Translations under genes and position numbers: made by a program | In this document: in pieces, positions 6,988 to 33,943 of the stretch | Layout of the letters: the number at the start of each line of letters is the position of its first letter | Position numbering within the stretch: position 1 is the stretch's first letter | Notes under the pieces: model-generated | Told to the model about the DNA's origin: nothing | Databases searched by the model: none | What the model saw: only the letters and a program-made list of their open reading frames with translations | From: Candidatus Omnitrophota bacterium | GTDB taxonomy: Bacteria; Omnitrophota; Gorgyraeia; S143-82 | Direction: 5' to 3' | Assembly: GCA_027065215.1 (NCBI GenBank) | Contig: JAMOOT010000259.1 | Location: forward strand, 1 to 33,943 | DNA: 33,943 nt

Positions 6988-7436
6988 TAAAGAAAGCAAG
7001 ATTGTCCCATACTGATCAGATATATGAAATTATAAGTTCATTTGCTAAGAAGGAATTGCTCCTGCCTCGCTCAAAACCTGATATCTATGAACATATTCGC
7101 GATTTTTTTGTTTGGGAAGAGAACGATAAGATATTAGGATGTTCTGCTTTGCATATTGTCTGGCAGAATTTAGGGGAGATAAGGTCTTTAGCAGTTAGAG
7201 ATGAAAACCAAAACGATGGTATTGGACGAGAATTAGTCTTGTCTTGTCTAAATGAGGCCAGAGAGTTGGGATTGAAAGAAGTGTTTGCATTGACTTATGT
7301 GCCGAGTTTTTTTGAGAAGTTGGGGTTTTGTTTGATTGATAAACACCAGTTGCCACGTAAGATATGGACCGATTGTGTAAATTGCCCTTATTTCCCTGAC
7401 TGTAAGGAGCAGGCAGTAATAATAAAGATAAATTAG
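6984..7436 (+). CDS. GNAT family N-acetyltransferase (short ArgA-like)
   Basis: 150 aa. Acetyl-CoA motif LAVRDENQNDGIGRELV (Q/R-x-x-G-x-G/A). GTG start overlaps the glgC stop (GTGA). C-terminal Cys cluster DCVNCPYFPDC. Confidence 0.78.
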   Translation: MIKKARLSHTDQIYEIISSFAKKELLLPRSKPDIYEHIRDFFVWEENDKILGCSALHIVWQNLGEIRSLAVRDENQNDGIGRELVLSCLNEARELGLKEVFALTYVPSFFEKLGFCLIDKHQLPRKIWTDCVNCPYFPDCKEQAVIIKIN

Positions 7437-7459
7437 TGTTTTATCAGGAGGAGATAGAT

Positions 7460-8884
7460 ATGAGTTGGGAATCTGTTATTGGTTTGGAAGTCCATGTGCA
7501 ACTGAACACAGATACAAAGATATTCTGTTCTTGCAAAAATGAGTTTGGAGCAGAGCCAAATACCAATGTTTGTCCGGTATGTCTGGGGTTCCCTGGGGTC
7601 TTGCCAGTATTTAATAAACGAGTGTTGGAATACGCTATAAAAGTGGGTCTTGCCTTGAATTGTAAGATTGCCAGTTATACGAAGTTCGATCGAAAAAATT
7701 ATTTTTATCCTGATTTGCCCAAGGCCTATCAGATCTCTCAGTACGATATGCCAATATGTGAATCCGGGTATTTGGAGATAGAAGTAAATGGGGCCCTTAA
7801 GCGTATTGGGATAAAACGAGTTCATATGGAAGAGGACGCTGGCAAGTTGATACATGAAAAGGATTATTCATTAGTGGACTATAACCGCACAGGGGTTCCC
7901 CTATTAGAGATAGTTTCAGAGCCGGATCTTCGCTCACCTGATGAGGCCTATGAATATCTAACTGAGTTAAAGCAAATCGTGCGTTATCTTGGGGTCTCTG
8001 ATTGTGATATGGAGAAAGGATCTCTAAGGTGCGATGCGAATATTTCAGTGAGGAAAAAAGGCGACACACAGTTTGGGACGAAGACAGAAATCAAAAACCT
8101 GAATTCGTTTAAAGGTGTGCGTTCAGCATTGGAATATGAGATAAGACGCCAGATTAAATTATTAGAAGCGGGAGAGACGGTGATTCAAGAAACCAGACTT
8201 TGGTCGGCTGAAAGGCAGATCACAATCCCTATGCGAAGCAAAGAAGAGGCACACGATTATAGGTATTTCCCAGAACCAGATCTTCTTCCAATAGAGGTTT
8301 CATTAGATATGATAAACAACATTAGAAAAGAGTTACCTGAGATGCCTCGGGAAAGGAGACACCGGTTGGTGAAAGAGTATGGAATCACTGATTATGATGC
8401 TAATGTGATTTGTTTAGAACGAGATTTTGCCGATTACTTTGAATCCTGCGCGAAAGTTTGTAAGAGCCCTAAGCGGTGTGCTAACCTTATGATTACTATT
8501 CTCTCTGAGAAACTTAACGATTTAGGGATAGATATATCTCAGTTAAAAATTAGCCCTAACGCATTGGCTGAATTAGTGGACCTCTGGGAAGAAGGGAAGA
8601 TTAATAATCTGGTGGTAAAACAGGTCTTGGAGGAGATGATAAACACTGGTAAATCGGCCAAAGATATAGTAGAAGAAAAGGGATTGTCGCAGGTCTCGGA
8701 TGAAGGAGAATTAGAGCGTTTCGCTAAAGAAGCGATAGAGAAAAATCCCAAGGTTGTGCAAGATTATCGATCAGGGAAAAAGAATGCAGTTATGTTCCTT
8801 GTAGGACAGGTTATGAAGGCCACTCGGGGTAAGGCCAATCCCCAAAAGGTGAGGGAGTTGTTAGAGGGACTGTTGGAGGATTAA
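7460..8884 (+). CDS. gatB: Asp-tRNA(Asn)/Glu-tRNA(Gln) amidotransferase subunit B
   Basis: WESVIGLEVHVQL, CPVCLGFPGVLP, NYFYPDLPKAYQISQ and a C-terminal YqeY-like tail. ATG 7460 is preceded by AGGAGGA (7446-7452). Confidence 0.95.
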   Translation: MSWESVIGLEVHVQLNTDTKIFCSCKNEFGAEPNTNVCPVCLGFPGVLPVFNKRVLEYAIKVGLALNCKIASYTKFDRKNYFYPDLPKAYQISQYDMPICESGYLEIEVNGALKRIGIKRVHMEEDAGKLIHEKDYSLVDYNRTGVPLLEIVSEPDLRSPDEAYEYLTELKQIVRYLGVSDCDMEKGSLRCDANISVRKKGDTQFGTKTEIKNLNSFKGVRSALEYEIRRQIKLLEAGETVIQETRLWSAERQITIPMRSKEEAHDYRYFPEPDLLPIEVSLDMINNIRKELPEMPRERRHRLVKEYGITDYDANVICLERDFADYFESCAKVCKSPKRCANLMITILSEKLNDLGIDISQLKISPNALAELVDLWEEGKINNLVVKQVLEEMINTGKSAKDIVEEKGLSQVSDEGELERFAKEAIEKNPKVVQDYRSGKKNAVMFLVGQVMKATRGKANPQKVRELLEGLLED

Positions 8885-9186
8885 TGCGACTGGTTTGTGT
8901 AGGAGATAGGATTACTGTGGAGGCCCTGACAATAGTAGGGGCTGAGCCGGTGGAGGTCCAAGATAGGTCCTCTCTATTAGAACAGGTGGAAGGCCTTTTA
9001 AAGAATAAGAATAATATTGTCTTGGTAACTCAAAGTGTAGCAGAAGAGATACAGAATGAACTTGAAATGTGGCAGAAGAAATATTCTGGTAGCATAGTAG
9101 TAGTAATACCCGATATAAATAAAGATGTAGAAGTAGATATAAATCAACTTATGGCAGAAGTAGTGGGGGTGAGTTTTGGGGATTGA
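8884..9186 (+). CDS. V/A-type ATPase subunit F-like protein
   Basis: 100 aa. The pattern MRLVCVGDRITVEALTIVGAE...NIVLVTQSVAEEI...IVVVIPD resembles the ATP-synt_F family layout. ATG overlaps the gatB stop (TAATG). Assignment by eye only. Confidence 0.45.
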   Translation: MRLVCVGDRITVEALTIVGAEPVEVQDRSSLLEQVEGLLKNKNNIVLVTQSVAEEIQNELEMWQKKYSGSIVVVIPDINKDVEVDINQLMAEVVGVSFGD

Positions 9187-9769
9187 ACAGATTAAGAATT
9201 ACATAAAAGATAAGGTTGAAGAAAAGGTTCAGGATGTATTACGCAGGGCTCATTTGGTTAAAGAACGGGAAATAAGCCAAGCAAAGAAGAAATTAGACCT
9301 GTGGATTGAAGAACAGACAAAGGCGTTTATGCGTGAGAAAATATCATTAATAGCGCAATACAAGGCAAGGACTTATAGGGAAATGTCTTTGGAAGAGACG
9401 AAACTAAAAGAACAACTGTGGATAGATTTTTTTGCTGCAGTGAAGGAAAGAGTGGAGTCATTGCGGTCTGACCATCAGAAATATACTACCTTATTACTCA
9501 GGTTTATGGAGTCTGCTCGTAAATATTATTCCAATGGTGTAAATGTCTTGGTTAATCCTAATGATGTGTCTCTGATGAAAGATTTGATTGAGATGCATTA
9601 TAAAGGTGTCGATATATCTGTCTTTCCTGAAAGTTCAGTGCGTATAGGATTTGTCTTGGTTGATAAAGACAGAGGTGCAAAGGTAAATTACGATATTTTG
9701 ACGATCTTAGATGCTGAAAGAGAAAGAATTAAGATGTATTTCTTTTCTAAATTGATGGATAAACGTTAA
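9176..9769 (+). CDS. V/A-type ATPase subunit E-like protein (coiled coil plus C-terminal globular domain)
   Basis: 197 aa. TTG start at 9176, after GGGGGTGA. Long charged N-terminal helix, then a C-terminal ...IGFVLVDKDRGAKVNYDILTILD... region typical of E/stator subunits. FliH/YscL-like stator proteins cannot be excluded. Confidence 0.4.
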   Translation: MGIEQIKNYIKDKVEEKVQDVLRRAHLVKEREISQAKKKLDLWIEEQTKAFMREKISLIAQYKARTYREMSLEETKLKEQLWIDFFAAVKERVESLRSDHQKYTTLLLRFMESARKYYSNGVNVLVNPNDVSLMKDLIEMHYKGVDISVFPESSVRIGFVLVDKDRGAKVNYDILTILDAERERIKMYFFSKLMDKR

Positions 9770-9958
9770 CTTTTAGTGTTATGGAGGAATAGGTTTAGAA
9801 AAGTGAAGTTGTATGCATATTTGCTTTCAGATTTTGGGTATTTGTTTGGCTTAGAAGTAGTTATGTACACAGATGGAGGATTTCTCTGTAAACGAAAAGG
9901 TCAAAAAGGCCTTTTAAAAGAACGGGGAAAATAGGGACAAAATTAAGAGGGGGGAGGT

Positions 9959-10546
9959 ATGCAATCGGTTGCAACATTTTTTGCCTTTATCCTTGTGTTG
10001 TTAATATTAGGAGTAGTAACGGTATGGTTTTTACTTATTTACAATGTGTTAGTAAAGAGAGAAGAAAATGTCAATCAGGCGTGGGCGCAGATACAGGTGC
10101 AGTTTCAACGCAAGTTAGATCTTATACCTGCACTTCTTGATGTTGTGAAATCTTATGCCCAACACGAGAATCAGACGTACAAGGATGTAGCTCAAATAAG
10201 GTCTGAAGCAGAGGAGATGATCAAGAGTACGGCGCAAGAACAGGTAAGGTTATCTAATGAGAAGTTAGAAAAACTAATCCAGTTGCAAGGAGTTCTTCGA
10301 TCAGCATTAAGTAAATTGTTTGCTCTTGTAGAGAATTATCCTGATCTGAAAGCAAATGAGAATTTCTTAACCATCCAGAGACAACTGGAAGAGACAGAGG
10401 ACAGAATTGCGAAGGCACGTGAGATTTATAACCAGAGAGTGAGGTCTTACAACGCCTTTTTAAGAGGCTTCCCTGGCAATTTAGTCGGGACCTTATTGGG
10501 GTTTTCTCAGAAGGCATACTTTGAAACTGAAGGAGGTCTCTCATGA
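9959..10546 (+). CDS. LemA family membrane protein (copy 1)
   Basis: N-terminal TM helix followed by YN.LV...V..AW..I.VQ..R.LDLIP and VENYPDLKANENF...QL...E..I..AR..YN, the hallmarks of LemA. SD GGAGG is upstream of ATG 9959. Confidence 0.9.
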   Translation: MQSVATFFAFILVLLILGVVTVWFLLIYNVLVKREENVNQAWAQIQVQFQRKLDLIPALLDVVKSYAQHENQTYKDVAQIRSEAEEMIKSTAQEQVRLSNEKLEKLIQLQGVLRSALSKLFALVENYPDLKANENFLTIQRQLEETEDRIAKAREIYNQRVRSYNAFLRGFPGNLVGTLLGFSQKAYFETEGGLS

Positions 10547-11151
10547 AACAAGGACGAGCGGTCTTGTCTATTGTATCTACTCTTATAGTGATTGTGGCAG
10601 GTTTGGCTCTCTGGTTTATCTGGGTTTATAATGGCTTGGTATCTTCAGAAAAAGCAGTGGAAGAAGCAAGTGCACAGGTTCAAACGGTCCTTCAGAGAAG
10701 GCTGGACTTGATCCCCAATCTTGTGGAGACGGTAAAAGGATATGCTCAGCATGAAAGAGAGGTTTTAGTTGCGGTAACCAAGGCCCGAGAGAGGGCCCAA
10801 GGAGTGCTGGCGGATATAAGCAAGAAGAAATCCTTAGGGAAAAAAGAGTTAGTTGCGTTAATGGCTTCCCAAGGTGAGATTACCTCAGCATTGAAGAATC
10901 TCTTTTCGTTAGTGGAAAATTACCCTGATTTAAAGGCAAGCCAGAATTTTCTTGCTCTGCAGGATCAGTTGGAAGGCACTGAAAATAGGATTGCAGTTGC
11001 TCGTCAGAGATACAACTATGCTGTGAGAAGGTATAATACAAAGATCAGTACTTTCCCCGGGAATATAATTGCGCCTATGTTTGGTTTTGCAGAGAAGCCT
11101 TATTTTGAGGCGAAAGAAGAAGCGCAGAAACCAATAGAAGTTAAATTCTAA
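10543..11151 (+). CDS. LemA family membrane protein (copy 2)
   Basis: Same LemA architecture (VENYPDLKASQNFLALQDQLEGTENRIAVARQRYN). The ATGA overlap with copy 1 and the GAAGGAGG SD suggest translational coupling. Confidence 0.9.
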   Translation: MKQGRAVLSIVSTLIVIVAGLALWFIWVYNGLVSSEKAVEEASAQVQTVLQRRLDLIPNLVETVKGYAQHEREVLVAVTKARERAQGVLADISKKKSLGKKELVALMASQGEITSALKNLFSLVENYPDLKASQNFLALQDQLEGTENRIAVARQRYNYAVRRYNTKISTFPGNIIAPMFGFAEKPYFEAKEEAQKPIEVKF

Positions 11152-11164
11152 AAATAAGGGAACA

Positions 11165-12247
11165 ATGGGTAAGTACGTTTTTGTCGCGTTAGTTTTTTTG
11201 AGTATCTTTTTAACCTTTTTCTTCGCAATTGGATGGAAAGATAATGTGCCTATGCACCGGCCGATTTTTTCATCTTCCAGGTTTATTTATGACTACGCAC
11301 ATCTTGTTTCTCCAGAAGGTAAAGCAAGACTGGAGAAGTTTCTCGAACATCTTTGGCGAGATTACGATATAGAACTAATTGCAATTACGACCCCATCCTT
11401 AGGCAACTATACTATATCGGAGTGGGCCAACATGATTTTTGAAAACTGGCATGTGGGTAAAAATACACGCGGTGAGAAGGGGATTCTGTTTGTGGTTGCT
11501 CCGTATGAAAAAAAGGTGCGTCTCGAGATAGGTAGAGGTTTGGAGGGAGTTTTTACTGATGCGTTTGTAGGGTATATAGAACGTGAGCAGATGAAACCTT
11601 TTTTTGAAGAGGCAAGGGTCGGTGTGGGGGTTGAAGCGACACTTGAACTTATTGTAAGCAGGATTGAGAAATTTATTAAGGAAGGAAGATACAACCCCAC
11701 AGAAGGTAGAAAACAAGAGGGAGGTTTTGCTTCTTCTGGTGCGGGCGCACAGAAGAATGTGGATATAGGGAGTGTTCATCGTCAGAAGAAGGATGTGGTT
11801 ACCGAAGATTTGAAGGAATATTTCAGTGCGCAACCTACTCCTCAGCTCACATTAGAGAGGTATCTTGAGGCCTGTAGCCGCCATATAAAAGACCCAAATC
11901 TGGGAATATATACTGAGGAGACAAAAGAGTTTTTTAGAAACTGGACAGTGACGAATGCCCAGATGGATAATATGAGAATGTATGAAGGTGTCCCTTTTAA
12001 GTTGATGATAGAAGGAGACTATGCGGTAATTTTCTATCCTGATAAAGACTGGACCTACAGCCCTTTCTTTTTGAAAAAAGGGCCGGCGGGGTGGCAACTT
12101 GACTTTGCTACGATGTCTAAGGTTATAAGATTTAATCAGAACAACTACTGGTTTTTTGTTTCATTTGATCATCCTTATATGTTCGCTTTTCGTAAGTATA
12201 TGATAGATGAGAATGGGTTTGTATGGTTTAAGTATAGGAAGAGGTAG
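11165..12247 (+). CDS. TPM-domain membrane protein with uncharacterised C-terminal domain
   Basis: N-terminal TM/signal anchor. TPM (YgcG/TLP18.3-like) core: YDYAHLVS...IELIAITTPSLG...WHVGKNTRGEKGILFVVAPYEKKVRLEIGRGLEG. A Gly-rich linker is followed by about 175 aa that are homologous to the middle of ORF 12565..14379. Confidence 0.8.
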   Translation: MGKYVFVALVFLSIFLTFFFAIGWKDNVPMHRPIFSSSRFIYDYAHLVSPEGKARLEKFLEHLWRDYDIELIAITTPSLGNYTISEWANMIFENWHVGKNTRGEKGILFVVAPYEKKVRLEIGRGLEGVFTDAFVGYIEREQMKPFFEEARVGVGVEATLELIVSRIEKFIKEGRYNPTEGRKQEGGFASSGAGAQKNVDIGSVHRQKKDVVTEDLKEYFSAQPTPQLTLERYLEACSRHIKDPNLGIYTEETKEFFRNWTVTNAQMDNMRMYEGVPFKLMIEGDYAVIFYPDKDWTYSPFFLKKGPAGWQLDFATMSKVIRFNQNNYWFFVSFDHPYMFAFRKYMIDENGFVWFKYRKR

Positions 12248-12266
12248 TTTTAGTAGGGGGAAGGAG

Positions 12267-12560
12267 ATGATAAGGACTTGGAAAGACAAACTAAAATCAT
12301 TGTTTGTGTTTGGCGGGAGAAAGATTATTACTGAAATTGGAGCCGTTAGTGCTTCAGATAGGAAAAACCTTGGCTGGCGCTATGGTCACAAAACGCTTAT
12401 TAAAGTGTCGTTATTAGAAGAGAAACAAACTGCTGAAAGGAGTTTGGGTATAGAGATTGTATATAAAGGTATTGGTTGCTACAGAGTATCACCAATAGTT
12501 TTGAGCAAACAAGAGGTGCAAGAGTTAATAGAATTACTTAGATCCGCGGTTCAAAGATAA
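12267..12560 (+). CDS. hypothetical small soluble protein (97 aa)
   Basis: ATG 12267 directly follows AAGGAG (12261-12266). It lies 19 nt after the previous stop and 4 nt before the next start. No TM segment and no motif I recognise. Confidence 0.5.
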   Translation: MIRTWKDKLKSLFVFGGRKIITEIGAVSASDRKNLGWRYGHKTLIKVSLLEEKQTAERSLGIEIVYKGIGCYRVSPIVLSKQEVQELIELLRSAVQR

Positions 12561-12564
12561 AAAT

Positions 12565-14379
12565 ATGAAGTGCAAGAAGGAGACAGAAAGAACAGTGAAG
12601 AGTAAGTTGCAAATTTTTTTGGTTAGCCTTATTATTTTATGCACCTCACTGGATTATATTTACGCTTTTTCATCTGACAATTTGGCATACAAAATAGGGA
12701 TGTTTCTTAAAAAAGGTAAAGTGCCGCCGAGAAGGCCTTCCCAGAGCAGATACTGTTTTGATTTTTCCGGTGTGGTTCCGAAAGATGTAGTTAGGGATAT
12801 TGATGGTTATGGCAGAAGCCTGAGAGAGGAGTTTGATATTGATTTTGTCGTTATTGTTACGCCATCTATTCCAGGGGAAGACATCAGTACTTTTGCTGCG
12901 GATATCTTCAGCAAATGGGAAATTGGTAAAGAAACAAAGGGGCGGAAGGGTATTCTTATACTCATCGCTCAGGAAGATCAAAAGGTAAAGATAGAGGTGG
13001 GGTACGATTTAGAGAGCATATATTCTGACCTCTATGTTGCTCGCGTTGAGCGAGAAATACTTGAAGAATTTTTAGCGCAGGCCGACTGGAAGAGAGGGTT
13101 TTTAGCCACTATAGAGAATTTTATAGAACGAACTTATCATATGCAGGATAAAGGGGTAAACGTAAGAGGAGTTACAGGGACAGCAAGACTGGGGTATTAC
13201 TCAGGTGGTGCAGGAGCAAAAGGGACGTTTGATTTCGGAGCAGCGTTGAGTAAACCGTTACCACAGACGCAGCAAGACTTACGCAAGTATTTTGGTGCAC
13301 AGCCAACGCCAGAACTTGCTTTTCGGAGATATATGGAATTCTGTGCGCGTAATATGAAGGATTACACTCTGGATCTGTTTAATGACCGGACAAAATTTTT
13401 CTTCAGTTACTGGCCCACAGCAAGCGGACAAAGGCGTTCGGAGGCCGAAGAGTGGGATGGGTTAAGTTATGAAGTCCGGCAGAAGGGTAAGTGGGCGGTG
13501 GTATTTCATCCTGACTCCGATTATATGAAAATGGCGCAGCATCCCGTATATCTTATTGAAAAAACAGATAAAGGGTGGCAAATGGATTTAGATGCTATGG
13601 CAAGGGGGCTTTCTTATGGAGGAAGGTTTGTCCACTGGGTCAATGGAGCTTGGCTTTATCCTTATGTAGAACTTTTTATGGATGATTATACTTTGAAACC
13701 GAATACCGCCTGTCTTATCAGAAAAAAAACCGATGTTGGTACGTTTGGTATATATTTTCTGGGTACAGGTCTATATAACCCTGCAGAGCCAGGTGTACAT
13801 ATTGGAGTGTGGGAGAAAATACAAGATAAGGACAGGAACGGGTTGCGCACAGGAGATAGCATAGTATCTATTGACGGGAAGAAAGTTCCGCGTGGCAGGG
13901 AAGGCGAGAGAATAGTAACGCGTTATCTTATAAATAATGTAAAAGCCGGAGACCGGCATCACCTGCGTATCTGGCGGGGATGGCGTTTTATTGAGCTGGA
14001 TGTTGAAGCGCAACCTGTTGGTAATGATTCATTCAGCGATTTTAGAAGGTGCCTTGCAGTACCGCGTGTGTGGATGGGTGTATATATCGGGATGACTAAC
14101 GAGGAAGAAGAAAAATATGTAAATGGACCCTCCACAGTTGTGCTGGATGTCTATCCTGGTAGCCCTGCGGATAAAGCAGGACTAAAGAGAGGTGATATCA
14201 TTTGTAAAGTTGGTGGTAAACGCGCTCCCTATGATGAACTTCTCCCGGGCCAGTTTCTGAAGATTTTAAGAAGTCATAAAGCCGGAGATAGGCTTAAGCT
14301 GGAAGTGTTGCGTAACCTCAAAGAGCGAAAAGCGGTAACGGTTGTATTAGAAGAAACAGAGCATAAGGGTTACTATTAG
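12565..14379 (+). CDS. TPM-domain membrane protein fused to the shared unknown domain and two PDZ domains
   Basis: N-terminal TM. TPM core (DIDFVVIVTPSI...WEIGKETKGRKGILILIAQEDQKVKIEVGYDLES). The middle region parallels the C-terminus of ORF 11165 (YFGAQPTPELAFRRYMEFCARNMKD versus YFSAQPTPQLTLERYLEACSRHIKD). PDZ-like GLRTGDSIVSIDGKKV and a classic PDZ, PGSPADKAGLKRGDIICKVGGK. Confidence 0.8.
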   Translation: MKCKKETERTVKSKLQIFLVSLIILCTSLDYIYAFSSDNLAYKIGMFLKKGKVPPRRPSQSRYCFDFSGVVPKDVVRDIDGYGRSLREEFDIDFVVIVTPSIPGEDISTFAADIFSKWEIGKETKGRKGILILIAQEDQKVKIEVGYDLESIYSDLYVARVEREILEEFLAQADWKRGFLATIENFIERTYHMQDKGVNVRGVTGTARLGYYSGGAGAKGTFDFGAALSKPLPQTQQDLRKYFGAQPTPELAFRRYMEFCARNMKDYTLDLFNDRTKFFFSYWPTASGQRRSEAEEWDGLSYEVRQKGKWAVVFHPDSDYMKMAQHPVYLIEKTDKGWQMDLDAMARGLSYGGRFVHWVNGAWLYPYVELFMDDYTLKPNTACLIRKKTDVGTFGIYFLGTGLYNPAEPGVHIGVWEKIQDKDRNGLRTGDSIVSIDGKKVPRGREGERIVTRYLINNVKAGDRHHLRIWRGWRFIELDVEAQPVGNDSFSDFRRCLAVPRVWMGVYIGMTNEEEEKYVNGPSTVVLDVYPGSPADKAGLKRGDIICKVGGKRAPYDELLPGQFLKILRSHKAGDRLKLEVLRNLKERKAVTVVLEETEHKGYY

Positions 14380-14636
14380 GTGAGTTTTAATGGCATAGAA
14401 GACACTGCCCTGTAGGTACTATTGATTGTTTTTTTTGAAGACATTCGATTAGCGTATTATCTCTGATATTTTGCTGTAGATAGATGGTATCCTTTGTTTG
14501 ATTTATTGTTAGATATATTACCTTTTTTTCTTGTCCATAAGTTACTTAGAGCCTCCAGTCGAGTGAAATGAGTTTATCTCCAAACACTTCTTAAGCAGGG
14601 AAGATCCATTGGAGGTTAAAATACTACCTTGTCCAG

Positions 14637-14665
14637 TTGACAGGCCTTATTTGATAGATTTTACT
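14637..14665 (+). promoter_or_regulatory. candidate sigma70-type promoter for the giant ORF
   Basis: Perfect -35 TTGACA (14637-14642), a 17-nt spacer, and a weak -10 TTTACT (14660-14665), about 37 nt upstream of ATG 14702. The -10 lacks the conserved A2, so the call is weak. Confidence 0.25.
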
Positions 14666-14701
14666 TCTATTAGTAGGGGGTTTTATTGTTGAGGGTAAAT
14701 A

Positions 14702-17700
14702 ATGAAGATGATGCATAGGTTATTTCACATTTGTTTGTCATTCTTAGTATTATTTTCGTTTATGCCTACCAATGCTCAATCCTATGGATTGGGTGATTTG
14801 AGTAATATCTCTGGAGTGGTAGGAGTAAAGGTGGAGGGAGGGCTGCCATCGTTGTTGTTCGCTGAGGGGGAAAATAGTGAGGAGATGGAGAGGTTGTTTT
14901 TCCAGTTATATGGGTTAGATGATCCAGAGAGGGAGTTGTGGGTAAATCTAAAGCCCGGAGTGGGGAGCAAGGGATTGATAGGGAGATGGGTAGGGTGTAT
15001 GGATGTGGGGAGGTACTTGTTCGAGACTGATCTGAGGTTGAAAGAGGATGCCACAAGGATGGTTGATGAGGTATTGGAGGATTATGGAATAGATGTGGGG
15101 GAAGTAGGGTTGGAGATGAGATTTTGGATAGAGGGGGGAGATGTAAGGATGAACGAGTATGAGGATGGAATGTTGATAGATGAGGCGAGATTGAAGGTGA
15201 GGGCAGAAGTAAAAGGATCGACTAAAGAGGGGGTAGAGGAATTAAATAGGTTGATTAACGGATTGGTAATACCAAAGTTAAAGGAAGAGGTGAACGAAGG
15301 GAAGAGATATAAAAGGTTAAGGGAATTGTATCGCTTGTATATAGTAAGTAGGTGGTTAAAAGAAAAGGAAGTGGGTAATGGGCTGGTGGAGAGGGTGGCA
15401 TACTATTATGGGAGGGTTGGCAGTAAGGAATGGATGCTGTTGGATGTGTTGAGAAGATATTTGATGATGTATGAAGGCGTTGATGGGGATATTGGGGGAT
15501 GTGTGGTGGGAGGGGTGTATCTTGGTAAAGTAGGAAGGATAATGAAGCGGGTGGCAGAAGGTGGTATGGGAGGCATAAGGAAGATAGGTAGGGTAGGAAG
15601 GAGGATACTATTCAATAAAAAATTTGTTGTGTTTATGGCCAGTTTGATGTTTGCGGTGCAGACCGTGGGTGGAAGTATATCGTTGGCAAGAGGGTTGGAT
15701 TTTGGAGAGATGCGAATTGGACAGTATGTATCTGAGAATAGGGAACTCAAGGAACAAATCCACGAAATACTTAAAGATGTAAAAATTACCTCAAGCAAAG
15801 ATGTTCTAACTTCTTTGTATAGTAGATGGAAAGACCAATTCTCTGTAATAATTCAAGGAAAAGGGGATAAGGTTGATAGTATCGTCATAAAAGACATCAG
15901 AAAGGCCATTATTTTATCTTTTCATCCTATTTACGGTGACCTTTTTGGCAATCTTTTGGTTAAGGCCCAGAGATGTAAAATACAGCAGCAGATAACAATG
16001 GGAGATATCAATTGGATAATGGATTTTTATAGAAACTATTCTAAGTATAGAAATACACGTCGTTATCAGAATTCTATGAGATTACTTGGTAGTTTGTTTC
16101 AGAATGATTCGTTTTTGAAGTTATTTAATCAAATAAAGGGAAAGGAATTATGGGGGCCTAATAAATGGAGGATAGAAGCATTAAATTCATGGCTGTATCC
16201 GGAAACGGCCAAATCTTGGTCCCTTACAGAAGATTCTTCTCTTTTAAAATTTACAAAGGATAAGGAGGAAATTAAAAAGAATCTTGATAAGTATAAGAAT
16301 TTGGCAAAGAGGTTGTTTTATTATTGGGTATATGCAAAATCGGGCGATAGATCGCTTATAGATTCGTATATCAAGAAGGTTACAGAAGAGATTAAGTTGG
16401 AGATGAGAGAGATTGGTGAAAAAGATATGGCAGAATATTCAGTGAAATTTTATGTGTATGAAAGTAAGATACGGGGAAAAGAGATGAAAAAGATATTCCC
16501 TGGGTTATTTGAATTGGCAAACTCAGGGGACCCATATGCTACTGCACTTTGGATAAATGTGGAGTTAGAACTTAGGTATTGGGCTGGTGGCAGATCTGGT
16601 TTTAGATTTAGCAATTTAAAGACTATCTTAAGCGATGTTTATATAAATTTGGGTAAATTAACGGATGAAGAGAAAAGAGATTTTGTTAAGTTTATGTGGT
16701 GGCTTTACTTCCGCTCGGGTAAGAGTTTTGTTCCTCCTAACGTGCGGAAAAAGGTCTTTTCTGAGTTGATTCACCATTTGGATCTGGGAGAATATTTGGA
16801 TACTATAAGTGGTATGACTGATTTTATGAAGGGTTTCAATAAACTTATAGATGATGAAGATTCCATGTTTTCATTGAGATGGGAGTTGATGCTTAAGCAC
16901 TACGAGATTTTAAGAATCGTCAAAACTACTAACGAATGGGAGAAGAATAATTTTGGACATATTGAGAAAAACCCAATTTTCGTCTTACCAATCCCGATTA
17001 TAGATAATCTGGACAGCAGGTGGATAAGATTTTTCATATTAGCGCAGCGATTTGGTTTTGAAGAGAGGTTATTAAGATTGATAGATTTGGATAAGATTAT
17101 TAAGGTTAATCTCGCGATACCATTAAGGTTATCGGATAATTTTTGGAGTGCTAAGAAAGATGAGGTGGAAGATTTCCTTTCGTTTTTCCTTTTTAGAAAA
17201 GGCGTATACGATCCAAGATTTGAGTATGGTACGTTTAATTTTTCCCAATTGTTTTTTCTATATTTTTCGGATATCTTCCAGAAAGGGTTTAAGGATATAA
17301 AGGATAGGCAATTGAAGTTTGTTTTGTTGTGTGGTGTTATGTCTTGGTTGATTGACAATGGGAAATATGATGTGCAAAAAGGAGGATTTGATTTTAATGA
17401 AGATCAGATTAGGTCAGCGATAAAACATGTGAGAAAGAGTTGGGAGTTGATGAAAGACAGAAAAATAACCTTTGCTAAAGGGTTATATAATTTAGTGGAG
17501 ATCTGTGATTCTAATTTTCCAAACACAGGGAAAGACGGATATGAGAAACTTTTGTCACCTAACACTTCGATTAGATATAGAGATAAAGATAAATTCTTAA
17601 AGGGTATTAAGGACATCAAAGGGCCATTGTGGTTGGGAATTATGATCCATGGAGGGGCAGATGTGGCAAAATATAAGGAAGGGGATCGAGATAATGCTTT

Positions 17701-18598
17701 TTATCTTGTCTCGCCAGATAAGAAAGGACGCATTACTGTAGATGAGATGGTAGATGCATTAGAGGGGTATGCTAAAAATAATAACGGGGACCTGTCTAAG
17801 ATGGTTATTGTAGCAGGAAATTGCTATTCTGGTTTTTGGATAAATGTATTAAAGAAATTAGGGAAAAATGTAGAAATCAAAGGCGCCCCGATTGTCCTAT
17901 CTGGGGCCTTGCCGACCTCACCTCAATTGGGATTTACGAATGTCTTTTTCTCCATTTTTGGATCTAATAATATCGGTACATTTTGGGATGTTGCAATACA
18001 GGAGTTTTTAGAAGATCAACATAAAGATGGAAAAACGACTGCCACTATATATGATTTGTTTAACTATTTAGCCGATAAGAAGTTGCCCTTTTTCCCGATG
18101 ATTTATTCGGTGGAAAAAGAAGGTAAAGGGCAGAAGAAAGGAGTTCGTTTTCTCCTTTTATCTCTGGGAACTCCTTTTGGCGTGTTTCCGTGGATGCCTA
18201 CGGAAGAAAAGGAACCGGAGGAATTGTTTAGAGAATTTTTGGACAATATAGAGGATTGGGTAGAGGAGACCGGGTATCAGAGTTTGTTTGTAAACTGGTT
18301 AAGGGAGAATAAGGATAGATTACTTTCGCTTGTGAAGGATAATAGGACCAGGGAAATGGGAAGGGTATCGGTGGAGGGAATTAAGGATTGGGTGGAAAAG
18401 ATAGAGAGGGGAGAGAATCTATTGGAGGAGGATGCGGAAATGGCAATAGTGAAAATAGCAGGGATGATTAGGGATAATCCAGAGGGCTTTGTGAAAGCAG
18501 TTACTGAGAAAATAGAGGAGATATTTGCCCAGTCTAATGAATTGGCTAAGGAGAAGGGAGGCATAGAATTTTCGGATAGGGTTCTCTTGGGGGATTAA
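14702..18598 (+). CDS. orphan 1,298-aa envelope protein with C-terminal caspase-fold (clan CD, C13/CHAT-like) signature
   Basis: Uninterrupted 3.9-kb ORF with GAGGGT 6-11 nt upstream of the ATG. N-terminal hydrophobic signal-like segment (MKMMHRLFHICLSFLVLFSFMPTNA|QS). Second hydrophobic helix at aa 308-329 (15623-15688). LGIMIHGG (His983, 17648-17650) and MVIVAGNCYSG (Cys1041, 17822-17824), each preceded by a hydrophobic strand. Acidic helical tail. No other family recognised. Confidence 0.85.
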   Translation: MKMMHRLFHICLSFLVLFSFMPTNAQSYGLGDLSNISGVVGVKVEGGLPSLLFAEGENSEEMERLFFQLYGLDDPERELWVNLKPGVGSKGLIGRWVGCMDVGRYLFETDLRLKEDATRMVDEVLEDYGIDVGEVGLEMRFWIEGGDVRMNEYEDGMLIDEARLKVRAEVKGSTKEGVEELNRLINGLVIPKLKEEVNEGKRYKRLRELYRLYIVSRWLKEKEVGNGLVERVAYYYGRVGSKEWMLLDVLRRYLMMYEGVDGDIGGCVVGGVYLGKVGRIMKRVAEGGMGGIRKIGRVGRRILFNKKFVVFMASLMFAVQTVGGSISLARGLDFGEMRIGQYVSENRELKEQIHEILKDVKITSSKDVLTSLYSRWKDQFSVIIQGKGDKVDSIVIKDIRKAIILSFHPIYGDLFGNLLVKAQRCKIQQQITMGDINWIMDFYRNYSKYRNTRRYQNSMRLLGSLFQNDSFLKLFNQIKGKELWGPNKWRIEALNSWLYPETAKSWSLTEDSSLLKFTKDKEEIKKNLDKYKNLAKRLFYYWVYAKSGDRSLIDSYIKKVTEEIKLEMREIGEKDMAEYSVKFYVYESKIRGKEMKKIFPGLFELANSGDPYATALWINVELELRYWAGGRSGFRFSNLKTILSDVYINLGKLTDEEKRDFVKFMWWLYFRSGKSFVPPNVRKKVFSELIHHLDLGEYLDTISGMTDFMKGFNKLIDDEDSMFSLRWELMLKHYEILRIVKTTNEWEKNNFGHIEKNPIFVLPIPIIDNLDSRWIRFFILAQRFGFEERLLRLIDLDKIIKVNLAIPLRLSDNFWSAKKDEVEDFLSFFLFRKGVYDPRFEYGTFNFSQLFFLYFSDIFQKGFKDIKDRQLKFVLLCGVMSWLIDNGKYDVQKGGFDFNEDQIRSAIKHVRKSWELMKDRKITFAKGLYNLVEICDSNFPNTGKDGYEKLLSPNTSIRYRDKDKFLKGIKDIKGPLWLGIMIHGGADVAKYKEGDRDNAFYLVSPDKKGRITVDEMVDALEGYAKNNNGDLSKMVIVAGNCYSGFWINVLKKLGKNVEIKGAPIVLSGALPTSPQLGFTNVFFSIFGSNNIGTFWDVAIQEFLEDQHKDGKTTATIYDLFNYLADKKLPFFPMIYSVEKEGKGQKKGVRFLLLSLGTPFGVFPWMPTEEKEPEELFREFLDNIEDWVEETGYQSLFVNWLRENKDRLLSLVKDNRTREMGRVSVEGIKDWVEKIERGENLLEEDAEMAIVKIAGMIRDNPEGFVKAVTEKIEEIFAQSNELAKEKGGIEFSDRVLLGD
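14800..15620 (+). other. cytosine-depleted, G-rich block (5' part of giant ORF)
   Basis: Hand count gives about 43 C in 14821-15600 (about 5-6 %). The 60-nt line 15061-15120 has 0 C and 28 G. Sampled neighbouring genes have about 17-20 % C. Confidence 0.8.
14962..14995 (+). other. canonical G-quadruplex motif on the coding strand
   Basis: GGGG-agcaa-GGG-attgata-GGG-agat-GGG-ta-GGG: five G-tracts with loops of 7 nt or less. A second, looser motif lies at 15485-15515 (GGGG-N5-GGGGG-N9-GGG-N1-GGGG). This is a sequence motif only; folding is untested. Confidence 0.5.
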
Positions 18599-30109: not shown

Positions 30110-33100
30110 ATGGAGGATGGGATGGATTACTCTTCTCTTCGTTCAGTTGGTTTGTATGAGCCCAGGTTTGAACACGATGCCTGTGGAGTGGGTTTCCTTT
30201 GTGATGTAAAAGGGAATCGGTCTAATAAATTGGTTCAAGATGCCCTTACTGTTTTAAAACGTTTGGCCCATCGAGGGGCGGTTGGGGCTGATCCTAAGAC
30301 AGGGGATGGGGCAGGGATCCTCATTCAGATCCCTCATGAGTTTTTCTTGGAGATTTCTGACTCCATAGGGATCGATCTCCCGAATTTGGGTTACTATGGT
30401 ACAGGTATGGTTTTTCTTCCAAGAAAGAGAGAGGAGAGAGAATACTGTAAGGCTGTGTTCTCAAAGGTGGTTGAAGAAGAGGGACAACATCTTTTGGGGT
30501 GGCGGGAGGTGCCGATAGATGACTCAGATATTGGGAAAGGTGCAAAAGAGGCTGAGCCGATAATAGAACAGGTCTTTATAAAGCGCGCAAAGGGGCTGAC
30601 AAATCAGGTAGATTTTGAACGTCGTCTTTATGTTATTCGTAAACGGGTAGAAAACACGGTTCGTGCTTCCGATATTAGCCAGAAGGGTTTTTTCTATATC
30701 ACAAATCTTTCTTCTCGCACGTTCGCATTTAAAGGGTTGTTAATGCCTCATCAAGTTGAGGATTTTTATGTAGATTTAAAGAATCCCAAGATCAAGAGTG
30801 CGATAGTATTGGTTCATTCTCGTTATAGTACTAATACATTTCCTACTTGGGATTTAGCCCAACCATTTAGGTTTCTTGCTCACAATGGGGAGATAAATAC
30901 CTTACGAGGAAATATTAATTGGATGCGAGCAAGGGAAGGTCTGCTTTCTTCTCCTCTTTTTGGGGATGCAATGGAATTGATAAAACCGATAATTGTTCCG
31001 GGAGGAAGTGATTCAGCCACTATTGATAATGTGTTTGAACTTTTGGTCTTGGCAGGCAAATCTTTGCCTGAGGCTATGCTGATGCTTGTCCCTGCGGCGT
31101 GGGAACAAGATAAATTGATGGATGAGAAGTTGCGCGATTTCTACAAATTCCACGCCTGTCTTATGGAGCCGTGGGATGGTCCGGCATCTATTGCCTTTAC
31201 CGATGGCAGAAGTGTTGGCGCTGTGCTGGATCGGAATGGATTGAGGCCAGCCAGGTATATCATTACCAAAGATGATTTTGTCGTTATGGCATCTGAGATG
31301 GGGGTTTTGGATATAGACCCGAGTAGAATAGCGGTCTCTGGTAGGCTTGAACCTGGTAAAATGTTTTATATTGATACAGAGGAGGGTAGAATAGTCCACG
31401 ATGAAGAGATAAAGGATAGGGTTTCTTCCCGTAGGCCTTATGGAGTATGGTTAAGACAATGGTTGGTTGATGTCAATGATCTTCCTACACCAAAGAAATT
31501 ACCTCCTAAAAGCGATAATCTCCTTAGAGATCTACAGGCCTTTGGGTATTCACGGGAAGATTTGAAGGTGTTAATCAAACCTATGGCTGAGACAGGTAAA
31601 GAACCGATTGGGTCTATGGGCAATGATACACCGCATGCGGTTCTGTCTAATCAGCCTAAATTGCTTTATGATTATTTTAAACAGTTATTTGCCCAGGTGA
31701 CCAATCCAGCCATTGACCCAATAAGGGAAGAGATAGTAATGTCCTTAGATAGTTTTATCGGTCCGCAGAAAAATATATTGGAGGAGACACCTGAGCACTG
31801 CCATAAACTTTATCTTAGAGAACCAATTCTTACCAATGAGATGTTGGAGAGGATTCGAGAGATAGATGAGAGAGGCTTTAAGTGCAAGAGGATTTCTGTG
31901 TTGTTTGATATTGAAGAAAGAGATAATTTCACGAAGGCGTTGGACCGAATATGTAGAGAAGTGGAGGATGCAATAGATGAGGGGTACTCATTTATTATTC
32001 TCTCGGACCGTGGAATATCCGAGAATAGGGCAGCACTTCCTATGCTCTTGGCAGTTGGAGCGGTACACCAGCATCTGGTTAGAAGGGCAAAGAGGACTCA
32101 GATAGGTGTTATAGTGGAAAGTGCTGAGCCAAGAGAGGTGCATCACTTTGCGCTTCTTTTTGGATATGGAGCGGATGCGATTAATCCTTATCTTGCCTAT
32201 GAAACGGTGGAGTACCTTTGGAGAGAAGGCCTATTAGATGTCGGCTCTCTTGAAGAGGGAATTGAGAATTATCGTAAGGCTGTAGATAAAGGGATATTGA
32301 AGATTTTGTCTAAGATGGGGATTTCTACTCTTCGGAGTTATCGAGGAGCGCAGATATTTGAAGCCTTAGGGATTCATGAGGAGGTAATTGAAAGGTGTTT
32401 TACTGGGACGCCCTCTCGTATAGGTGGAGTTGATTTTGATATTATAAGAGAGGAGACAGTTCGTCGGCATAGGATAGCATTTCCAGAAGAAAAGAGGGAG
32501 ATTCATATACCATATCTCGTAACAGGTGGGATTTATCAGTGGAAGAAGGATGGTGAGTTTCATTTGTGGAATCCTGCTACTATTGCTTCCCTACAGGATG
32601 CAGTGCGTAAAAATGATTATGGCCGGTACAAAGAGTTTGCCGGGATGATAAACGATCAGTCTAAACAGCCCACAACTCTTCGAAGTTTGTTGAAGTTTAA
32701 GAAAACGAATCCTATTCCAATAGAGGAGGTAGAGTCAGTAGAAAATATCTTGACCCGTTTTGTTACTGGGGCTATGAGTTTTGGTTCTATCAGCCGAGGT
32801 GCCCACGAATCACTTGCTATTGCTATGAATCGAATTGGAGGCAAGTCTAATACAGGTGAAGGGGGAGAAGATCCAAGGAGGTTTTTGCCTTTGCCAAATG
32901 GTGATTCTACCCGTAGCGCGATAAAACAGGTTGCATCAGGTAGGTTTGGGGTTACCACAAATTATTTGGTGAACAGCGATGAGATACAGATAAAGATTGC
33001 TCAGGGGGCAAAACCGGGTGAAGGAGGGCAGTTGCCGGGCCATAAGGTAAGTGTAATAATTGCTCGGACTCGTTATACTACACCGGGTGTGACGCTTATC

Positions 33101-33943
33101 TCCCCGCCGCCCCACCATGATATATACTCTATTGAGGATCTGGCTCAGTTGATATTTGACTTGAAGAATGTCAATCCCTCCTCTCGGGTGAGTGTCAAGT
33201 TAGTCTCTGAAGTTGGAGTAGGGACGATTGCCGCAGGAGTGGCTAAGGGGCATGCGGATATGATTTTGATCTCTGGAGGGGATGGTGGGACAGGCGCTTC
33301 ACCCCTTAGTTCTATCAGACACGCTGGTCTCCCTTGGGAATTAGGGTTGTCTGAGACACATCAAACCTTAGTCCTTAATGACTTGAGGTCGCGTGTTAGA
33401 CTTCAAACCGATGGACAGATGCGTACTGGTAGGGATGTGGCGATTGCAACGATTTTGGGTGCAGAAGAATATGGTTTTTGCACAGCAGCTCTTATTGTTA
33501 TGGGATGTGTTATGTTGCGTCATTGCCATCTAAATAATTGTTCTGTAGGAGTGGCTACTCAGGATGAGATCTTACAGAAGCGTTTTAGGGGCCGACCAGA
33601 ATATCTGGTAAATTATCTTCGGTTTGTTGCGCAGGAGTTTAGGGAGATTATGGCACAATTGGGTGTTCGCACCGTTGATGAGTTGGTAGGCAGGACAGAC
33701 CTTTTGGAACTTGATACGGCTATATTACCGTGGAAGGCAAAGAAGATAGATTACTCGCGCATACTCTATAAGCCGAAGGTCCCTCCTACAGTTGGGATCT
33801 ATTGTCAGATACCCCAGGATCATGGGATCGATAGGGTTTTGGATAGAAAACTCATTGAGTTTGCTAAACCAGCATTGGATAAAGGAGAGAGGGTAAAGGC
33901 CGAATTTGAGATACGAAATACAGATCGTACAACGGGTGCAATG
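30110..33943 (+). CDS. gltB: glutamate synthase large subunit, 3'-truncated by the window end
   Basis: Missing from the ORF track because it has no stop inside the window. I translated the first ~1.3 kb continuously and spot-checked motifs further downstream, and 30110 to 33943 is exactly 1,278 codons. EHDACGVGF (Ntn Cys at codon 25), [22 protein letters not shown], and the FMN domain [12 protein letters not shown]. An in-frame TAA immediately precedes ATG 30110. ATG 30122, preceded by GGAGGA, is the alternative start. Confidence 0.95.

Follow-up and report, generated by a model that had tools for sequence, protein, structure and literature searches.

Gene content of the locus

The DNA analysed here, called the window, comprises positions 1-33,943 of contig JAMOOT010000259.1 from a Candidatus Omnitrophota bacterium (assembly GCA_027065215.1). 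Our subject is a group of five genes at 9959-14379, which encode two LemA proteins, two TPM-domain proteins and a small protein of no known family. To our knowledge, LemA and TPM genes occur side by side in many bacteria, and there is no agreed function for either. The locus proved to be a variant of this LemA/TPM neighbourhood, present in the window in reduced form.

The five open reading frames (ORFs), like every other gene identified in the window and the features of the cluster located below, lie on the + strand. They are LemA1 (9959-10546, 195 amino acids), LemA2 (10543-11151, 202 amino acids), TPM1 (11165-12247, 360 amino acids), X (12267-12560, 97 amino acids, in a frame open from 12207) and TPM2 (12565-14379, 604 amino acids). 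LemA1 and LemA2 overlap by 4 nt, and the following gaps are 13, 19 and 4 nt, which is operon-like spacing. An earlier sequence-only reading of this DNA had reported the same five co-directional genes and gaps, and its coordinates were reproduced. A promoter and terminator scan of 9500-15000 did not delimit the transcription unit, with 12 sites against 11.5 expected and 6 against 3.6, no better than shuffled sequence.

Pfam was run on all five proteins. Both LemA proteins match PF04011 (LemA1: E 7e-48, 162.6 bits; LemA2: E 8e-59, 198.2 bits; cut-off 26.2) and both TPM proteins match PF04536 (TPM1: E 1e-27, residues 41-164, 96.6 bits; TPM2: E 5e-23, residues 66-186, 82.0 bits; cut-off 22.1). Two PDZ stretches were found in TPM2 and nothing in X. 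LemA2 also matches the four-helix bundle of T. maritima LemA in PDB entry 2ETD (2etd_A; E 1.8e-45, residues 30-202). The family assignments of the sequence-only reading thus stand, and so does its remark that both components are duplicated, with 45% identity between LemA1 and LemA2 and 30% between TPM1 and TPM2 across the TPM domain and the domain that follows. The latter domain, described below, is distantly NTF2-like, and we refer to its carriers as TPM/NTF2-like proteins.

Related loci and the canonical module

An alignment-based scan for relatives, with one genome per species, yielded 80 loci, while a query with a single protein had given one close relative only. ORFs were predicted in all 80 loci and then compared with the proteins of the window and with hidden Markov models built locally. 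Three classes were distinguished: 43 canonical TPM loci, 14 TPM/NTF2-like/PDZ loci and 23 loci with a solitary TPM/NTF2-like gene. Among the homologues that bear a name, the most frequent label is Candidatus Omnitrophota. The canonical TPM loci are mostly from Acidobacteriota, and a LemA gene adjoins in 36 of the 43. In 40 of the 43, the TPM protein carries a transmembrane helix after the TPM domain and a Gly/Ser-rich tail. Both helix and tail are absent from TPM1 and TPM2, as the sequence-only reading had held when it proposed that helix and tail were replaced by a soluble domain.

The 14 TPM/NTF2-like/PDZ loci are mostly Omnitrophota-labelled, and they include one from the cultured Desulfosarcina widdelii PP31 (L016). 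LemA is found in the flank of 11, a tandem LemA pair in 8 and a second TPM/NTF2-like gene in 6. The arrangement is co-conserved far outside the window, a point that the earlier reading had proposed to check by gene neighbourhoods. In all eight loci with a LemA pair, a DUF2089 protein of 117-129 amino acids, with a Zn-ribbon, a helix-turn-helix (HTH) and a SHOCT-like module, is encoded directly upstream of the first LemA gene. The first LemA in these loci has 243-366 amino acids. In the relatives it starts with a SHOCT-like N-terminus and a highly basic stretch, followed by a first transmembrane helix (TM1), a loop, a second helix (TM2) and the LemA domain; the loop is either a short hairpin or a TPR-like segment of about 95 amino acids. 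The second TPM/NTF2-like protein is TPR-terminated and 550-590 amino acids long in 4 of the 6 loci that have one. The window and L003, its closest relative, lack the TPR end of the first TPM/NTF2-like paralogue.

The canonical order of the module is DUF2089, SHOCT-like LemA with two transmembrane helices, LemA with one transmembrane helix, TPM/NTF2-like/TPR and TPM/NTF2-like/PDZ(-PDZ), because these DUF2089, LemA1 and TPR architectures are seen in the loci with a LemA pair. D. widdelii PP31, a cultured organism whose genome is complete, carries the full module (NZ_AP021875, about 6,359,200-6,364,300). Literature searches on LemA with TPM and on related accessions, in which other senses of "TPM" and "Lema" predominated, returned no description of this architecture, and TPM-PDZ fusions are not described in the literature found.

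A more elaborate gene cluster was observed in L015 (Omnitrophota), at 7057-11586, downstream of DUF2089, LemA, LemA and TPM/TPR genes. It contains two small cytoplasmic-type ORFs, one of them X-like, and two tandem TPM/NTF2-like/PDZ genes; this locus also encodes a secreted protein of 192 amino acids consisting solely of an NTF2-like domain.

The third class (L017-L039) is from Desulfobacterota. Its solitary TPM/NTF2-like gene, of about 340-370 amino acids, is closest to TPM1 of the window. LemA was found in none of these 23 loci, and there was no conserved neighbour within 5 kb on either side; the sole recurring "cluster" beside the solitary genes is an antisense shadow ORF.

The window copy as a reduced derivative

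L003 is the closest relative, with 80-81% amino acid identity in TPM2. By blastn, its positions 7501-9895 align to 9866-12269 of the window at 81%, and the two sequences are collinear from 9866 onward only. Upstream, the synteny differs: the window has GatB and then isolated V-ATPase F- and E-like genes, and L003 has other genes. A contig deposited independently, L002, has the same junction. LemA1 of L003 has 366 amino acids, and the start of the window's LemA1 aligns with its internal Met174, just ahead of TM2. The segment 9866-9958 of the window corresponds to about residues 142-173 of L003 LemA1 and contains two in-frame stops before the ATG at 9959. This segment is the now non-coding remnant of the ancestral N-terminal extension of LemA1 (SHOCT-like module, TM1 and periplasmic loop). 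Neither DUF2089 nor the LemA1 N-terminus was found anywhere in the window by tblastn.

By these alignments, a rearrangement near 9866 removed DUF2089 and the first 170 or so residues of LemA1. Neither the SHOCT-like module nor TM1 is left in LemA1 of the window. The window still has the LemA pair, and also the pair of TPM/NTF2-like paralogues, one of them PDZ-terminated. Judged by comparison with its relatives, the window copy is then a truncated form of the canonical module and not its most elaborate form. The sequence-only reading, which had described an elaborated version of a conserved module, had missed that DUF2089, the N-terminal half of LemA1 and the TPR end of TPM1 are gone from the window copy.

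The small gene X is a real gene. A strong Shine-Dalgarno sequence (AGGGGGAAGGAG) precedes the ATG at 12267 and supports the start of the 97-amino-acid protein, its homologues start at the same Met, and its ratio of nonsynonymous to synonymous substitution rates (dN/dS) of 0.14-0.29 indicates purifying selection. The protein has no transmembrane helix, signal peptide or Pfam match. Its homologues form only two clusters, at 91% and 65% identity. The 91% relative, L086, has the same TPM1-X-TPM2 context; in L085, X sits after a gene with a terminal PDZ domain; a weak homologue lies at 7340-7600 of L015; and X is absent from L003, the closest full-length relative. X is a narrowly distributed accessory gene and an addition to the module.

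The truncation raises the question of whether the cluster is a decaying remnant, functionless after the rearrangement and heading to pseudogenisation. The losses of DUF2089, the LemA1 N-terminus and TPR, together with the stop-containing remnant at 9866-9958, are what such decay would leave, and LemA1 is also the most diverged gene, with a dN/dS of 0.21 and 70% amino acid identity to L003, where the other genes reach 80-84%. However, the dN/dS values against L003 are 0.21 for LemA1, 0.11 for LemA2, 0.15 for TPM1 and 0.21 for TPM2, and the four core genes are under purifying selection despite the truncation. The five ORFs are intact, tightly spaced and provided with good ribosome-binding sites. 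The truncated LemA1 retains a transmembrane helix and the whole LemA domain, its new start being the aligned internal Met, and the TPM1-X-TPM2 arrangement is preserved in L086. We therefore regard decay as quite improbable.

Domain architecture of TPM1 and TPM2

TPM1 consists of an N-terminal signal-anchor (residues 5-23), the TPM domain (11285-11656, residues 41-164, PF04536), an SSGAGA linker and the NTF2-like domain (11777-12199, about residues 205-345), which is homologous to the middle domain of TPM2. Unlike most of its orthologues, it has no TPR. TPM2 has an N-terminal signal/anchor followed by the TPM domain (12760-13122, residues 66-186; from PF04536 and Foldseek), an SGGAGA linker located by alignment (13201-13218, residues 213-218), a middle domain delimited in the AlphaFold2 model (13267-13764, residues 235-400), PDZ1 (13777-14019, about residues 405-485; Pfam PDZ_2, AlphaFold2 and Foldseek), PDZ2 (14056-14349, about residues 498-595; PF13180 at residues 507-590 and PF17820 at residues 525-581) and a C-terminal tail ...EETEHKGYY (14350-14376, by alignment). 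We found 64 homologues of TPM2, with E values down to 1e-21, and the named ones are labelled Omnitrophota or Desulfobacterota. The full-length model of TPM2 has a mean predicted local distance difference test score (pLDDT) of 89.4 and a predicted template-modelling score (pTM) of 0.85. Its TPM domain superposes on 5anp (BA41) and 7tbr (Rhom172_1776) with a Foldseek TMt of 0.85-0.88 and a root-mean-square deviation of about 2 A.

The middle domain of about 165 residues lies between TPM and PDZ1. Neither this domain nor the C-terminal half of TPM1 has a Pfam match even at E<=10. Foldseek with full-length TPM2 gave PDZ and TPM matches only, which masked the middle domain, and it was therefore modelled by itself. 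The resulting AlphaFold2 model (pLDDT 90.1) shows four helices and then a curved beta-sheet. Its Foldseek matches in the PDB are weak, with a best E of 0.09 and a template-modelling score of at most 0.44, and the recognisable top matches are mostly NTF2-like folds: 2jq5 (the SEC-C/YchJ-like RPA3114), the CaMKII hub, the PBP2a N-terminal domain, limonene epoxide hydrolase (LEH) and AtzH. Owing to these scores, we call the domain only distantly NTF2-like. It is also rare, since a HMMER search of 1.84 billion cluster representatives gave only 65 proteins at E<=1e-3. Among 62 proteins scanned for partner domains (TPM2 together with the representatives not yet collected), TPM accompanies it in 40, PDZ in 18 and TPR in about 7.

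These domains could be read as parts of an enzymatic module, in which the TPM domains would be periplasmic phosphatases or nucleotidases, the NTF2-like cone would bind a substrate that is small and hydrophobic or lipid-linked (a lipid or polyprenyl phosphate, for example), and the PDZ domains would only position the enzyme. The literature on phosphatase activity of TPM domains is divided (PMC11237479, PMC12419801). The family name and the phosphatase activity reported for plant TLP18.3, as cited in PMC11237479, favour an enzyme, while a phosphatase role of TPM is judged improbable in recent analyses (PMC12419801) and a mycobacterial TPM subunit is reported to bind neither metal nor nucleotide (PMC13456599). 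The NTF2-like domain has conserved polar residues (Q246, E258, Q289, E293, Q339 and D341), as in ligand-binding cones, and its weak Foldseek matches include phospholipid binders of the MlaC/Ttg2D type (E about 0.8); however, the similarity to lipid binders does not reach significance. In addition, the PDZ, TPR and HTH regulator of the relatives indicate protein clients and signalling. We consider the enzymatic module unlikely.

For the C-terminal half of TPM2, the best structural match is the PDZ1-PDZ2 tandem of DegP/DegQ (Foldseek E about 1e-9), and the Pfam families PDZ_2 and PDZ_6 each match two stretches. The two added PDZ domains noted in the sequence-only reading are thereby borne out by Pfam and by structure. 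PDZ2 carries a W503-x-G505-x-Y507 loop, invariant in the alignment, at the position of the carboxylate-binding loop. NCBIfam gave partial, sub-threshold matches to the PDZ regions of HtrA, CtpA, RseP and MamE. Both the tandem PDZ fold and the periplasmic location are shared with DegP/DegQ, but the trypsin-like protease domain is absent: TPM2 has no Trypsin_2 or Peptidase_S1 match, and its HtrA matches in NCBIfam are confined to the PDZ region and far below the cut-off. TPM2 is therefore not an HtrA protease. It may still be asked whether TPM2 serves as a regulatory adaptor for a protease encoded elsewhere, presenting substrates through its PDZ tandem as in HtrA, Prc and RseP and not being a chaperone or sensor in its own right. 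The structural closeness to DegP/DegQ and the partial HtrA, CtpA and RseP matches would fit such a role, but no conserved protease gene was found across the neighbourhoods examined, and we hold this adaptor to be improbable.

Two short segments of TPM2 are conserved outside the domains. The first is the linker, where S213, G215 and G217 are invariant in all 66 aligned family members and are the most conserved residues of the family; the SGGAGA segment has a low pLDDT. We also observed that SGGAGA and its counterpart in TPM1 (about 11732-11749) resemble ...SGGGGAS..W, with which canonical TPM proteins close their cytoplasmic Gly-rich tail. Were the two homologous, the motif would now be on the opposite side of the membrane. 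The second is the C-terminal tail, which has the family consensus EETxHKGYF or ...GKEG[FIMW] and ends in an aromatic residue in TPM2. The tail is modelled as an ordered strand (residues 596-598, pLDDT about 95), and the conserved aromatic C-terminus is a candidate self-ligand for a PDZ groove.

Predicted topology of the LemA pair

LemA1 and LemA2 each have one hydrophobic segment, which points to a single N-terminal transmembrane anchor. Among canonical LemA proteins with one transmembrane helix, K/R residues are more numerous in the N-terminal flank than in the C-terminal flank in 22 of 28. Some Acidobacteriota LemA genes (in L042, L060, L063 and L078) encode a lipobox-like sequence (L-S-G-C or T-G-C) where the hydrophobic segment ends, which would make these LemA proteins lipoproteins with a periplasmic domain. 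The positive-inside bias together with the lipoboxes suggests that the canonical LemA domain is periplasmic, and the functional N-terminal GFP and mCherry fusions of MamQ agree with this (PMC4902198). LemA2 of the window, with its positively charged N-terminus MKQGR and one transmembrane helix, follows the canonical charge pattern, and its domain is predicted to be periplasmic, as in LemA/MamQ.

The LemA domain of the LemA1 type should be cytoplasmic, because the protein begins with a SHOCT-like N-terminus, as in the cytoplasmic DUF2089 protein, and then has two transmembrane helices, which is atypical of the LemA family. The truncated LemA1 of the window keeps a matching charge pattern: its transmembrane helix (residues 9-27) has no K/R in the N-terminal flank and K/R in the C-terminal flank (KRE after the helix), and its domain is likewise predicted to be cytoplasmic. 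We know of no description of LemA paralogues on opposite faces of the membrane, an arrangement that is a prediction only.

A resemblance to the magnetosome proteins MamQ and MamE was also considered. MamQ and MamE, an HtrA/PDZ protease, likewise pair a LemA-family protein with a PDZ protein at the cytoplasmic membrane. In the window, however, the NCBIfam matches are partial, with 98-102 bits against 250 and 37 against 800, far under the equivalog cut-offs, and no other mam gene is present. The magnetosome reading was therefore rejected, and the likeness is at the family level.

The giant neighbour and the surroundings of the operon

Downstream of TPM2, after a gap of 322 nt on the same strand, lies an ORF of 1298 amino acids (14702-18598) with a signal peptide, one internal transmembrane helix and a Gly-rich region. 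The sequence-only reading had called it a giant caspase-like envelope protein and had speculated that the PDZ domains might dock it. The ORF exists, but no caspase or clan-CD homology was found by sequence. It has no match in Pfam, NCBIfam or PDB sequence searches, and the His/Cys region at about residues 930-1135 gave only chance-level matches even at E<=10. Only two relatives were found among 5.8 billion proteins, one full-length (33% identity) and one partial, both beside unrelated genes. Its HGG ... AGNC motif is shared with the full-length relative only. The N-terminal domain (about residues 60-260, with motifs LWVNLKPG, DLRLKEDA and REVNEGK) was observed to be conserved and matches no family.

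That the six genes form one system, with the PDZ domains docking this protein, would be suggested by the adjacency on the same strand, by the signal peptide and transmembrane helix of the giant, and by the H-G ... A-G-N-C motif conserved between it and its single full-length relative. The neighbourhoods of both relatives, however, are without LemA, TPM or PDZ genes; the fetched LemA/TPM loci give only a weak local match, in L011 (E 4e-4, residues 66-121 of the giant); no peptidase was matched in Pfam, NCBIfam or PDB sequence searches; and the C-terminus of the giant, ...RVLLGD, is unlike the hydrophobic ends that PDZ domains typically bind. This partnership is already disfavoured, and we rate it as very unlikely. 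The giant is treated as an unrelated near-orphan, and its sequence gives no support for the caspase-like label.

PADLOC gave no match at E<=0.01 for any of the six proteins (the five and the giant neighbour), and an anti-phage defence reading was dropped for this reason. The operon is surrounded by housekeeping genes: PFK, IlvD, IlvC, GlmU-like, GatB, an aminotransferase, an AsnS/AspS-type tRNA synthetase, PhoH, YbeY, QueA and PdxA. Between GatB and LemA1, at 8884-9769, there are two small V-type ATPase-like genes, for subunit F (PF01990, 2.7e-11) and subunit E (PF01991, weak, 5.8e-4), and no further V-ATPase subunit gene was found within the window. As they adjoin the breakpoint (about 9770-9866), a V-ATPase operon may also have been split.

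The guanine-cytosine (GC) content of the window is 41%. Its GC skew is strongly and uniformly positive, from 0.16 to 0.6 in every 1-kb window, and peaks at 0.606 at 15001-16000, a peak produced by the Gly-rich stretch of the giant. A scan of the whole window at the Rfam gathering thresholds gave zero matches, tRNA included, although ARAGORN predicts a 93-nt tRNA-Ser(GGA) at 1528-1620. Near the end, an ORF of more than 1278 amino acids (30110-33943) runs past the window; it has no stop within the window and is thus missing from the list of the ORF tool. By its N-terminal sequence, it is a putative glutamate synthase large subunit.

Interpretation

The explanation to which we tentatively lean, somewhat short of an even chance, is that the locus specifies a membrane-anchored, periplasm-facing assembly, quality-control or sensing complex that binds envelope clients, with the LemA pair as scaffold and with the canonical form wired to DUF2089. 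On the outer side of the inner membrane, the TPM/NTF2-like proteins would serve in assembly or quality control without being enzymes. Their PDZ domains, plus TPR in the relatives, would capture C-termini or peptides of envelope client proteins, and the aromatic C-terminus of TPM2 itself might compete as a self-ligand. The LemA pair would be the scaffold of the complex on both sides of the membrane. The cytoplasmic LemA1 of the canonical form would couple to the DUF2089 Zn-ribbon/HTH regulator via their shared SHOCT-like modules, and this coupling would yield an envelope-stress output of the Lia/Psp kind. In the window, the regulatory head was lost by the rearrangement, and the structural core and the accessory X remain.

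Several published proposals are in keeping with this scheme. DUF2089, with its Zn-ribbon, HTH and SHOCT-like parts, has been proposed as a membrane-to-transcription signal transducer in Lia-like contexts, and SHOCT-like modules have been proposed to act at the inner leaflet (PMC11237479). TPM domains have been proposed as chaperone-like assembly factors rather than phosphatases (PMC11237479; PMC12419801), and MamQ has been described as a hub that organises cytoplasmic-membrane proteins (PMC4902198). The sequence-only reading had suggested an envelope-associated sensing or quality-control role; this fits the DUF2089 regulator, TPR and PDZ of the relatives (PMC11237479), and it is a role that we infer.

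A number of points weigh against the periplasm-facing complex. LemA is absent from the flank in 3 of the 14 TPM/NTF2-like/PDZ loci and from all 23 solitary loci, which indicates that the TPM/NTF2-like unit can work without LemA and is not obligatorily tied to it. The NTF2-like assignment of the modelled middle domain is weak (E 0.09, template-modelling score at most 0.44), and the model leaves the invariant SGGAGA linker without a role. The topologies come solely from hydropathy and the positive-inside rule, and the charge margin of LemA2 is small in some orthologues. Finally, the signalling half of the model cannot as such hold for the window copy, in which DUF2089, the SHOCT-like module and TPR are missing.

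Comparison with known systems shows where the locus departs from them. As in canonical LemA/TPM (YgcG-like) loci, the two families are adjacent on one strand, TPM starts with a signal/anchor, and there is one transmembrane helix in LemA. Here, by contrast, there are two LemA paralogues of opposite predicted topology; the rare NTF2-like domain and PDZ, with TPR in the relatives, take the place of the transmembrane helix and Gly tail; the relatives add the DUF2089 regulator; and only an S-G-G-A-G-A remnant of the tail is kept. In the DUF2089-headed contexts with Toastrack, PspC and LiaI-LiaF-TM (Ravi et al. 2024, PMC11237479), the regulator is directly upstream of a SHOCT-like membrane protein, as it is in our relatives, an arrangement that suggests membrane-to-transcription signalling. 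The partner here, however, is LemA with TPM/NTF2-like/PDZ or TPR instead of Toastrack, PspC or LiaF, and the window has lost DUF2089. A term search found no mention of LemA in the main text of PMC11237479. The PspA operon of the ydjFGHL type in B. subtilis also brings TPM (YdjH) and an NTF2-like protein (YdjG) together, in an envelope-stress context with a proposed chaperone-like role in membrane-complex assembly (PMC11237479). There they are separate proteins accompanied by PspA and band-7, whereas here the two domains share one protein, and LemA and PDZ occur without PspA; the likeness drawn between the two systems is one of domain type.

A bolder version, which we hold to be possible yet rather doubtful, is that the canonical module is an undescribed trans-membrane device for envelope-stress signalling. 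The PDZ and TPR ends would read envelope proteins, the LemA pair would form a two-sided scaffold, and the cytoplasmic LemA would hold or release DUF2089 via SHOCT-like contacts. If this is true, it would give the LemA/TPM pair its first mechanistic role, and the window copy would be a "headless" derivative with the effector or scaffold half only.

The variant links interpretable parts to LemA/TPM, namely the peptide-binding PDZ and TPR ends, the NTF2-like domain, the DUF2089 regulator of the relatives and a LemA whose domain is predicted to be cytoplasmic. As a natural truncation, the window copy shows selection keeping the LemA/TPM core in the absence of the regulator. Together with the cultured host, these parts make the question of LemA/TPM function experimentally approachable.

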